NCBI GenBank assembly: GCA_965249555.1
Contig: OZ252243.1
Location: forward strand, 32,001 to 96,000
Length of the DNA stretch: 64,000 nucleotides
From: Nitrosopumilus sp.
GTDB lineage: Archaea > Thermoproteota > Nitrososphaeria > Nitrososphaerales > Nitrosopumilaceae
Direction of reading: 5' to 3'
The translations under genes and the position numbers were made by a program. Shown here piece after piece: positions 45,901-47,133 of this stretch (position 1 is its first letter; every line of letters begins with the position of its first letter). The notes beneath the pieces were generated by a model, which was given only the letters and a program-made list of their open reading frames with translations, did no database searches and was not told the origin of the DNA.

Positions 45901-47133
45901 AGGTATCCTGAATTAGACAAGAGGATTGAAAACACATATCTTCAAAAAAGTATTGCTCATAACAAAGCGTCTCTGTATGATAGCTATATTCGTTCCATTC
46001 GTTGGGCGACTGACAGAATAGGAGATTCTGGTGTTATTGCATTTATCACAAATGCGGGTTTTATTCAATCTGATGCAGGTTCAGGAATACGTGCTTCATT
46101 ATATGAAGAATTTACAGATGTATGGTGTTTTGATTTGAGGGGAAATGGGAGAATCACTGGTGATGGACGAAGTATCTTCGAATATCCTGGTAAATCAACA
46201 GGAGGAACACGAACACCAGTCGCAATAATTATTTTAATAAAAAACCCAAAGAAAAAAGATTGTAAAATAAATTATTATGCAATTGGGGGTGAATTCTATT
46301 CTGGAAAAGATAAGAGAACCAAAGTAAAACAATTGAAATCTATCAAAGGAATAAATGATTGGCAGAACATAACGCCTGACAGACACCATGATTGGGTAAG
46401 TCTGCGTAGTGAAGAGTTTTACAAGTATGCAGTTATAGGAGATAAAGGGACCAAGGCAGGCAAAAACAACAACGCAATATTCAAACTATATTCTGGAGGA
46501 TTAGCGACTAGTCGCGATATATGGGTATACAATACATCCAAAGACGAACTCGCTAAAAACATGAATGTACATGTAAATTATTGTAATAATCAAGATTTGG
46601 ATAATATTATTTTTGATCCTAGAAAAGCTAAATGGGATAGAGAAGTCATAAAAAGATTAAAACGAAAAAAATCTATATTTAATGAAAATAAAATAAGAAG
46701 ATCATTATATCGCCCCTTCTTTAAACAATATCTATATTTTGAATATGCTTACATCCACGATCAAGCACTCATACCAAAATTCTTCCCAAAAGGAGATTCT
46801 GAAAATATTGTAATTTGCATTCCGGACAAAGGCAAATCTGGGATGTTCTCTACAATCATCACAGATATTACACCTGACTTGCACATAATTGAACAATCAC
46901 AGTGTTTTCCTCTTCTTACATATGAGGATAACACATTGAGAGAGAGAGAGAGAGAGAGAGAGAGAGAGAGCAAACGCATCGAAAATCTCGTCATCATCAT
47001 ACCACACAAATACACAGGAGAGCCATCCGTCATTATCACAGATACTACCCCCGACCTCGAAGCCATCCATCACGGACAATGCTTCCCATTCTACTACTAC
47101 AAGGAGGGTCGCCGGCGGCGAGAATATCCTTGA
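42955..47133 (+). CDS. Type ISP restriction-modification enzyme (Mrr-like nuclease, SF2 helicase, N6-MTase, TRD); C-terminus in another frame
   Basis: GIDL...AIQCKCY; MACGTGKT, DEAHRT, MTATP, CLSEGVDVPALD, QSVGRVMR; EPFAGTGTF, GNPPY; YRPFFKQY. Confidence 0.93.
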   Translation: MGATGGHPFDAILSKIRKESKSTSELGTKFEKITKDYFKIDPLYTRRFKKVWLWMEWPKRDGVDTGIDLIAEEFDGKLCAIQCKCYADDGSIDTKSVAKFLAKAGSLKIEHTILVYTGDQITSHAVKILKDSGTQILRSENFRGSSIDWSDFPRLARIKDQKKLRPHQSSAMADVLNGFETHDRGKMIMACGTGKTLTALHIAERQVGEGGVILYLVPSISLILQSMREWSDNANLKHNYMAVCSDKSTGEDGSITELESPVSTDADTLRPYLKNRPRDAMTVIFCTYQSIDVIRHAMKGKSFDVIFCDEAHRTTGVEDKSFFTKVHNDKNVSGKKRLYMTATPRVYSDAIQAKMGKVIYSMDREEKFGPEFHNLSFTEAVKDEILTDFRVKIAIVPADAVDKHFQKSTSSKLSELPLDDRTQLAAVWHGLQYPNDDTTPKLLQRVIAFANRIDRSMMFAGKITDKNDVDRSFANVVDAYEKKFNLGNKVEVEHIDGKTKALERRDKLRWLDESTDDPNTCRIVSNARCLSEGVDVPALDGVIFLNPRKSRVDVVQSVGRVMRKSPGKDYGYVILPVALPAGKQYHESLDDGKTFKIVWQVLNALRSHDENFGAEINKLILDRNTENTSPTPRISVSVLGEEDGTETITKFYDKVKSKLVEKVGDIDYYDKYGQKLGRTTHTIEARLKNKMESDVKVREEIQKFHMGLKKLINDSVTEYATVQAISQHMVLSRVFDYLFAGEFTSHNPISIAFEDVISKIGLEEELGELDGFYEEVKREVSQIKTRDARQSFIKKIYGNFFESSDKKGTEQHGIVYTPIEVIDFIINSVQHVLKTEFGTEFNDRSVKILEPFAGTGTFIVRLLESGYITSNMYEKYKHDIYANELILLAYYIATVNIETTYSSLKNSGKYVPFRGISYTDTMMINPRYREGKDRQETSTLYGKLKIPHDMIKRQRGSHLHVILGNPPYSAGQNNYNDQNENIRYPELDKRIENTYLQKSIAHNKASLYDSYIRSIRWATDRIGDSGVIAFITNAGFIQSDAGSGIRASLYEEFTDVWCFDLRGNGRITGDGRSIFEYPGKSTGGTRTPVAIIILIKNPKKKDCKINYYAIGGEFYSGKDKRTKVKQLKSIKGINDWQNITPDRHHDWVSLRSEEFYKYAVIGDKGTKAGKNNNAIFKLYSGGLATSRDIWVYNTSKDELAKNMNVHVNYCNNQDLDNIIFDPRKAKWDREVIKRLKRKKSIFNENKIRRSLYRPFFKQYLYFEYAYIHDQALIPKFFPKGDSENIVICIPDKGKSGMFSTIITDITPDLHIIEQSQCFPLLTYEDNTLRERERERERESKRIENLVIIIPHKYTGEPSVIITDTTPDLEAIHHGQCFPFYYYKEGRRRREYP
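46938..46970. repeat. (GA)16G microsatellite inside the Type ISP TRD region
   Basis: Direct reading; encodes RERERERERE. Confidence 0.97.

Follow-up and report, generated by a model that had tools for sequence, protein, structure and literature searches.

Does a Type ISP restriction-modification (RM) gene that is assembled with a stop codon inside its target recognition domain (TRD) represent a broken gene, an error of sequence, or a gene that can be switched? The question is raised by a locus of Nitrosopumilus sp. (assembly GCA_965249555.1, contig OZ252243.1, positions 32,001-96,000 of the forward strand). This 64,000-nt stretch is referred to as the window, and coordinates are those of the window unless another locus or contig is named. 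An earlier note, made from the letters of the window, had described here two copies of a TRD segment separated by a (GA)16 run, and had proposed a phase-variable, dual-coded switch of RM activity or specificity in an archaeon. The genome is a single contig of 2.23 Mb (GC 34.4%) that carries an archaeal amoA, and the relatives of the locus are from Nitrosopumilaceae, which bears out the archaeal assignment. We consider it highly probable that the locus is a slippage-driven phase-variation module inside the TRD of a Type ISP enzyme in a Nitrosopumilus-like archaeon.

Anatomy of the Type ISP gene and its GA tract

The gene as assembled (state A; 42955-47133, + strand, 1392 amino acids) was delimited from the list of open reading frames (ORFs), Pfam and a structure match. 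It encodes, in this order, an Mrr nuclease, a superfamily 2 (SF2) helicase, a coupler, an N6A methyltransferase, the N-terminal half of the TRD (N-half), copy 1 of a duplicated segment, an (ER)n peptide, copy 2 of the segment, and the stop. Pfam assigned Mrr_cat_2, ResIII/Helicase_C, ISP_coupler, N6_Mtase and positions 1-163 of the 342 of Type_ISP_C to the assembled frame, and positions 159-340 of Type_ISP_C to the +1 frame downstream of the GA tract. The locus therefore has the architecture of a Type ISP enzyme (nuclease, helicase, coupler, gamma-class N6-adenine methyltransferase and C-terminal TRD), with a TRD that is whole only across two frames.

The duplicated segment is 36 codons long. 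Copy 1 (ENIVICIP...PDLHIIEQSQCFP, ending QCFP; 46801-46911, +) is followed by (GA)16 and a G (46938-46969 for the tract, by direct inspection of the sequence), which is the proposed slippage site, and then, in the same frame as copy 1, by the diverged copy 2 (ENLVIIIP...PDLEAIHHGQCFP, ending QCFP; 46981-47088, +). At the junction (47089-47133, +) the coding frame shifts by +1. The own frame of copy 2 continues as the tail FYYYKEGRRRREYP up to a TGA at 47131-47133, and the TRD's C-terminal half (C-half) lies intact in the +1 frame (47120-47785, +), without a start codon of its own at the junction. No TAA, TAG or TGA is found in any forward frame between 46937 and 47131, and the +1 frame, which reads ANASKISSSS...RRVAGGENILDS, is open from the repeat to 47785. 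One extra GA unit, or two fewer, yields a product of 1610 amino acids. This anatomy agrees in every detail with that given in the earlier note, which had placed the stop-free interval at 46940-47130 and the size of the read-through product at about 1610 amino acids. The codon bias that it had pointed out was also found, since C-ending codons account for 0.51 of copy 2 vs 0.23 of copy 1; the GC content of copy 2 is 0.49, compared with 0.32-0.35 in the flanks.

When the copy-2 peptide was re-encoded with the codon usage of the gene (20000 trials), the +1 frame was open in 0.48% of the trials, the +2 frame in 0.72%, and both frames in none. The stop-free stretch of 194 nt is the tenth longest on the + strand of the genome, and dinucleotide repeats of at least seven units occur only twice in the 2.23 Mb, at the homologous site in two paralogs. 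These results indicate that the stop-free frames and the GA tract exceed what chance would give.

The N-half of the TRD aligned with residues 1037-1377 of LlaBIII (E = 1e-55), and also with LlaGI and 7LO5. Copy 1 aligned with LlaBIII residues 1332-1377 and corresponds to the core β-hairpin plus Loop VI (residues 1332-1370). According to Kulkarni et al. (2016; PMC4872093), Loop VI (LlaGI 1365-1374) is one of three recognition loops of the TRD, the target position +3 is read by H1368 of LlaGI and N1360 of LlaBIII, and the hairpin that precedes Loop VI (1347-1358) is a conserved core element. Since the segment aligns with the core hairpin and Loop VI, the duplicated unit is hairpin plus Loop VI. 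The Loop VI equivalent is PDLHIIEQSQ in copy 1 (46873-46902, +), where the H encoded at 46882-46884 aligns with N1360, and PDLEAIHHGQ in copy 2 (47050-47079, +); in copy 2 of the paralog it is PDLQVNFNGQ. The residue equivalent to N1360/H1368 is hence H in copy 1, E in copy 2 of the window and Q in copy 2 of the paralog. The product as assembled is without a complete TRD, because the C-half carries the remainder of the core together with the guide subdomain.

The paralog lies at C1:119204-124047 and is ∼97% identical to the window gene outside the TRD N-half, which is 56-68% identical. Identity between the two loci spans ∼42700-47860 of the window, so that a unit of ∼5.1 kb was duplicated. The paralog carries the same cassette with (GA)24, and its junction is identical, letter by letter, to that of the window; its ORF is in the third frame and ends within copy 2. 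Both genes thus contain what is expected of a contingency gene, a repeat inside the reading frame whose unit length is not a multiple of three.

In the mechanism that we propose, replication slippage would alter the number of GA units (n) and thereby select one of three downstream reading frames. With n = 2 mod 3 the full-length enzyme would be made. With n = 1 mod 3, as in the window, copy 2 would be read as a second hairpin plus Loop VI up to the stop at 47133, without the C-half, and with n = 0 mod 3, as in the paralog, translation would stop in or just after copy 2. By these counts both paralogs are OFF in the assembly, the exact count for the window copy being that of the assembly alone. 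The ON state would be reached from the window by the gain of one unit or the loss of two, and from the paralog by the loss of one.

Cassettes, repeats and reading frames in relatives

A protein search with residues 1150-1392 gave 166 matches, of which 20 were fetched. Fifteen of these proteins end as copy 1, a repeat-encoded peptide and copy 2, the repeat peptide being ERER..., GGGGG or a peptide with a period of seven residues, as encoded by heptanucleotide repeats. Three are ordinary single-copy enzymes, and the other two are read-through ON forms (P0010, 1604 amino acids; P0012, 1644 amino acids) with the sequence ...ANASKISSSSYHTNTQ...RVAGGENILDS... The linker read-through that had been predicted for the window is therefore found in natural proteins, as well as in the nine ON loci described below.

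Scanning species-representative genomes with an alignment of the copy-2 peptide gave 37 loci, 32 from Nitrosopumilaceae, Nitrosopumilus, Cenarchaeum or other thaumarchaeal metagenome-assembled genomes (MAGs) and five from bacterial MAGs. They comprise 25 cassettes, 11 ordinary single-copy genes, in which the sole segment is of the copy-2 type and contiguous with the C-half, and one bacterial variant (L042, from a Spongiisociaceae MAG). In this variant a partial copy 1, a G11 tract (2456-2466) and a full copy 2 are all in frame with the C-half, and by its sequence the ON form there would use copy 2. A family-wide search matched 21 of 300 other genomes and none of the 37 in the genus of the window, and provided one further cassette, L048. 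The 28 cassette loci considered below, nearly all of them from Nitrosopumilaceae, are the window copy (WIN), the paralog (PAR), L048 and the 25 from the scan. One Nitrosopumilaceae genome of 2.4 Mb (G194) had 22 segment matches, corresponding to about 11 cassettes in differing repeat phases on several contigs (L017, L018, L020, L026, L034, L035, L038, L048 and others). A DNA search covering 24 same-genus genomes and 16 other-family ones detected no cassette; its only further hit was, in G015, a GA run within an unrelated gene. That run, (GA)14 on the reverse strand of L004 (G015:C154, 1502-1529), is in frame inside a Cys-rich methylase-like gene of this same-genus genome, and extends GA tracts in defence-type genes beyond Type ISP.

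A repeat is present at the homologous site in 26 of the 28 cassette loci; of the other two, one carries a single unit and the other lacks the motif. Nine motifs were found at this site, with unit lengths of 1, 2, 4, 7, 8 or 11 nt, and never a multiple of three. They are GA/AG (5-26 units), G (11, 13), CA (6), ACAG (17), the heptanucleotides AGACTCC (10, 17), ATCCGCA (9) and CCTCAAA (11), an 8-nt motif, AGCCAGTC/AACCAGTC (5-6 units), and the 11-nt motif AACCCACTCAG, which in L016 (1524-2491) is repeated 88 times and fills 968 nt at the switch site.

Nine of the 28 loci are ON, i.e., the ORF of the N-part runs into the C-half and copy 2 is read out of frame. Seven, the window included, read copy 2 in its own frame and then stop, and eight, among them PAR and L048, read the third frame. 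L020 and L026 are OFF: copy 2 is in frame with the C-half, but the N-part is not. Of L031 only a remnant is left. In L006 the junction is wholly in frame and its repeat has degenerated; a second tract, (CA) of ∼19 units, lies upstream inside the TRD N-half (∼1700-1745) and breaks the frame. Since the gene is out of frame at this CA tract, the switch seems to have moved.

The clearest pair of alleles was found on two contigs of one MAG. L034 and L035 aligned over 4218 nt with 27 mismatches and a single gap, which is exactly one 8-nt repeat unit: with six units the gene is ON, and with five it is OFF. Tract-length ON and OFF alleles thus exist in nature, in relatives of this strain. The phase-variable switch suggested in the earlier note is in this way supported by comparison (the paralog, the 28 loci, and L034/L035), not by reads.

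Selection on copy 2 and alternative readings

The cassettes fall into two classes. In class I (WIN, PAR and L048) the C-half lies in the +1 frame relative to copy 2, and in class II (22 loci) in the +2 frame. We call linker frame the one that joins the N-part to the C-half, and it was scored across 35 codons. A metagenome scan with class I peptides yielded four loci only (L043-L046), and the class I codon tests rest on WIN, PAR, L048 and L006 only. The linker frame, in which copy 2 reads as a Ser/Thr/Pro-rich linker, was stop-free in 4/4 class I-type loci (L006 counted) and in 22/22 class II loci, hence in 26/26. The same frames were each open in one of the 11 ordinary genes, and in copy 1 of the cassettes in 4/27 and 2/27 cases. 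The own frame of copy 2 was open in 28/28 loci. The remaining frame was stopped everywhere except in the window copy, by 3-6 stops in class II and also in PAR, L048 and L006. The idea that all three frames are open by design was thus discarded, and the three open frames of the window are, as judged from the homologous sequences, a local accident. The earlier note had made its reading depend on the alternative frames of homologous cassettes being free of stops, and this proved right for the linker frame and wrong for the third frame in all but the window.

Variation among the 22 class II copies at own-frame codon positions 1/2/3 was 0.54/0.32/1.04 (position entropies), and by the same measure 0.80/0.52/1.45 in ordinary genes. 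For copy 2 the ratio of nonsynonymous to synonymous differences (Nei-Gojobori pN/pS; 136 pairs, 17 loci) was 0.29 when the own frame was scored and 2.28 for the linker frame, as compared with 0.49 for copy 1 and 0.21 where the C-half begins. The small number of comparisons within class I are in line with this (WIN-L048: pS 0.73, pN 0.22). On the evidence of these substitution patterns, the own-frame copy-2 peptide is under purifying selection and the linker frame is selected only for openness, and copy 2 is in this sense dual-coded, as had been supposed. From the genetic code we infer that C-ending codons would suit both needs, since a codon ending in C cannot feed a stop in either alternative frame.

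In class II the TGA that ends the own frame of copy 2 overlaps the ATG of the C-half (ATGA) in 21/22 loci, the other one having GTGATG, and ordinary genes have no Met at this position. The ATGA stop/start overlap is the usual signature of translationally coupled genes. This suggests that in the ATGA subclass the copy-2 phase yields a two-chain enzyme. Separately translated parts are not found in WIN, PAR and L048, which have no start codon in the frame of the C-half at the junction.

Several points weigh against a switch that simply turns the enzyme ON and OFF. The share of ON loci (9/28) is about what random tract lengths would give, so that the tally itself is no evidence of selection for ON. 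Both paralogs are OFF, and an active enzyme is not seen in this genome. In each of the four public runs the contigs are interrupted at the GA tract (46928-46980), so no heterogeneity of GA length is seen at read level for this strain; because these contigs end at the tract, the length distribution is unreadable from them, which says nothing either way on length variation. A simple ON/OFF model also leaves the selection on the own frame of copy 2 unexplained, and the structure models described below assign no role to the copy-2 peptide. We infer a slippage rate that would be useful in this organism, an ON product that would restrict and methylate, and whatever role the own-frame copy-2 peptide may have.

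In one alternative, copy 2 has no function in any present state and only the open linker frame is now selected; its coding signature would be a legacy of an earlier in-frame junction, like those of L006, L020 and L026, or would stem from recombination with ordinary paralogs. We regard this as possible, though doubtful. In-frame junction variants do occur beside out-of-frame ones in the same MAG (L020 and L026 vs L017 and L035), loop types such as QVNFNG and QVITNG are found in copy 1 as well as in copy 2, suggesting exchange, and the models give copy 2 no structured role. However, the 22 class II copies share a derived FPM..VM tail and, in all but one, the ATGA, and yet they have diverged with a pS of 0.63 and a pN of only 0.18, and the unconstrained frame of the same stretch has 3-6 stops.

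Alternatively, the switch could have three states, with the copy-2 frame (state A) functional as well. In the ATGA subclass this would be a split enzyme, formed by an N-part ending in copy 2 and a C-half re-initiated at the overlapping ATG, and it might use the Loop VI of copy 2 to recognize a different target. That copy 2 evolves as coding sequence in its own frame, that the stop/start overlap is conserved in class II, and that the segment holds the base-reading Loop VI, with the copies differing at the very residue equivalent to N1360/H1368, all speak for it. So does L022 (900-1250), where three tandem hairpin/Loop VI segments (QLNKNG, NSVSPT and EVIHHG) are separated by (GA)5 and G7, and the ATGA overlap and the C-half come after the three segments. 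The split form was modelled on L028, with the N-part ending in copy 2 (569 amino acids) and the C-half from the ATG (218 amino acids). The interface score ipSAE was 0.87 in 3/3 runs vs 0.00 for the best control, at least 78% of the contacts were common to the runs, and the predicted local distance difference test (pLDDT) of the partner was 86. The ipSAE mark was reached by 58/80 solved complexes and 2/110 mismatched pairs, a calibration that is only rough, with own alignments used. The L028 score may reflect memory of LlaGI/LlaBIII and would then show likeness, not binding.

Other results do not favor a functional copy-2 state. In WIN, PAR and L048 the start codon is lacking, and the own-frame tail is not conserved. 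In the L028 prediction the contacts between the chains involve copy 1 (chain 1 residues 478-518), and copy 2 (529-569) contributes no residue to the confident interface. AlphaFold also left copy 2 disordered in L006, modelled with both copies (mean pLDDT 79.4; copy 1 ordered, copy 2 below 50), although this result is biased towards copy 1, on which MAFFT had put all 52 other rows of the alignment. The model of the window state-A product (mean pLDDT 62.6; residues 488-611 below 50) was uninformative. A three-state switch with a functional copy-2 frame seems unlikely to us. The fuller version, in which the gene would be a three-way translational selector beside the base-reading loop, giving a fused enzyme with the copy-1 Loop VI, an enzyme that contains copy 2, or is completed by way of it, with the different Loop VI of that copy (two chains, split and coupled in translation, in the ATGA subclass), or nothing, is distinctly unlikely, and we put it forward as a speculation.

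A decaying pseudogene, in which duplication and a frameshift broke a Type ISP gene and the repeat is incidental, is very improbable. Both copies in this genome are out of frame as assembled, some relatives (L031, L038 and L030) are clearly degraded, and an IS66-family transposase (DDE_Tnp_IS66, E = 4e-41; 48120-49448, +) lies directly 3′ of the gene. Decay is nevertheless at odds with the absence of any stop in 1392 + 222 codons, with the intactness of all domains, with a linker frame open in 26/26 loci, with the existence of ON alleles, and with nine independent repeat motifs at one site.

The junction itself is authentic. The same contigs from four public runs (two studies) contain both paralog variants, and one contig of the second study covers 46981-47212 with no difference and no gap. 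That the GA tract or 47105-47120 was misassembled or misread has a negligible probability: long dinucleotide tracts are error-prone and the contigs do end there, but the junction is identical in the paralog, is spanned without differences by the second-study contig, and its frame offset recurs in L048, from another genus, and in seven database proteins. The earlier note had offered, as its own alternative, an error or a recent 1-nt insertion near 47119, which is rejected on the same grounds (the paralog junction, the second-study contig and L048). A 1-nt insertion relative to L006 was also considered and dropped, as the alignment shows instead a length difference of 11 nt. Programmed +1 frameshifting, at the rare-codon run CGC CGG CGG CGA or at CCT TGA, was discarded too, because these codons arise where the conserved V-x-x-G-E-N of the C-half is read in another frame, and because the position of the stop differs among class I members.

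Other tracts of this kind were noticed. A G13 tract occurs elsewhere in the same genome, and two C12 tracts (G12 on the gene strand), at G000:C1:708997-709008 (L078, 1998-2009) and C1:2178472-2178483 (L079), sit at or upstream of the starts of genes for fn3-domain surface proteins. The former, next to an IS110 transposase, ends a short ORF that immediately precedes the gene. The two C12 tracts may be further contingency loci.

Relation to known systems and significance

Host-adapted bacteria are the textbook case of repeat-driven phase variation in restriction systems, which, to our knowledge, is barely documented in archaea. The Type IIG enzyme Cj0031 of Campylobacter jejuni has a repeat tract that is reportedly poly-G, and we know of no duplicated specificity segment, dual-coded linker or helicase motor in it. 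It resembles the Type ISP gene in being a fused restriction-methylase switched by an intragenic repeat tract (PMC4889913), and it differs in being bacterial. LlaGI and LlaBIII of Lactococcus (PDB 5FFJ and 4XQK) share the single-polypeptide architecture, the TRD N-half and the hairpin plus Loop VI, but in them the segment is present once, in an uninterrupted frame that has no repeat tract. In Type III mod phasevarions and in Type I hsdM/hsdS genes with simple sequence repeats (SSRs), non-3n repeats likewise give random ON/OFF switching, and alleles of one family have several repeat types among them (PMC5909438, PMC7383803). There the repeat lies in ordinary coding sequence; here it has a copy of a base-reading loop on either side, and the ON frame runs through a stretch whose conservation is in a different frame.

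For the split/fused reading of the ATGA subclass, NgoAV of Neisseria gonorrhoeae is the closest precedent (PMC9577141): through its poly-G tract, hsdS alternates between split and fused forms, which are both active and differ in specificity (GCAN8TGC and GCAN7STCA). NgoAV differs in its separate specificity subunit, in belonging to a bacterial Type I system and in having no duplicated loop; in the subclass of the window, moreover, the split form is without a start codon. The 'logic gate' of the Mycoplasma bovis Type III mod (bioRxiv 10.64898/2026.04.01.715767) is likewise presented as a case in which SSR frameshifts in RM genes can have more than two outcomes, in another type of enzyme and another organism. 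Our literature searches found no report of phase variation for Type ISP enzymes or in Nitrosopumilaceae. Phase-variable RM genes are known in bacteria; new here are the host, the enzyme type and the architecture, namely the duplicated recognition loop, the dual-constrained linker and, in relatives, the ATGA coupling.

If the three-way selection of products outlined above were true, a single gene would switch stochastically, with no recombinase, among two target specificities and OFF, and the repertoire would be widened by arrays such as that of L022, where there are three segments and two repeats. The coding solution is unusual: a single stretch is maintained as peptide in one of its frames, and another frame is kept open as a linker. 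Because the loop at which the module is placed is known to read a target base, a switch in specificity is directly testable with alleles of defined repeat length. The cassette is a conserved, evolvable module in free-living or symbiotic ammonia oxidizers, with up to ∼11 copies in one genome, which implies that these abundant archaea are under strong and fluctuating pressure from viruses and hedge their bets.

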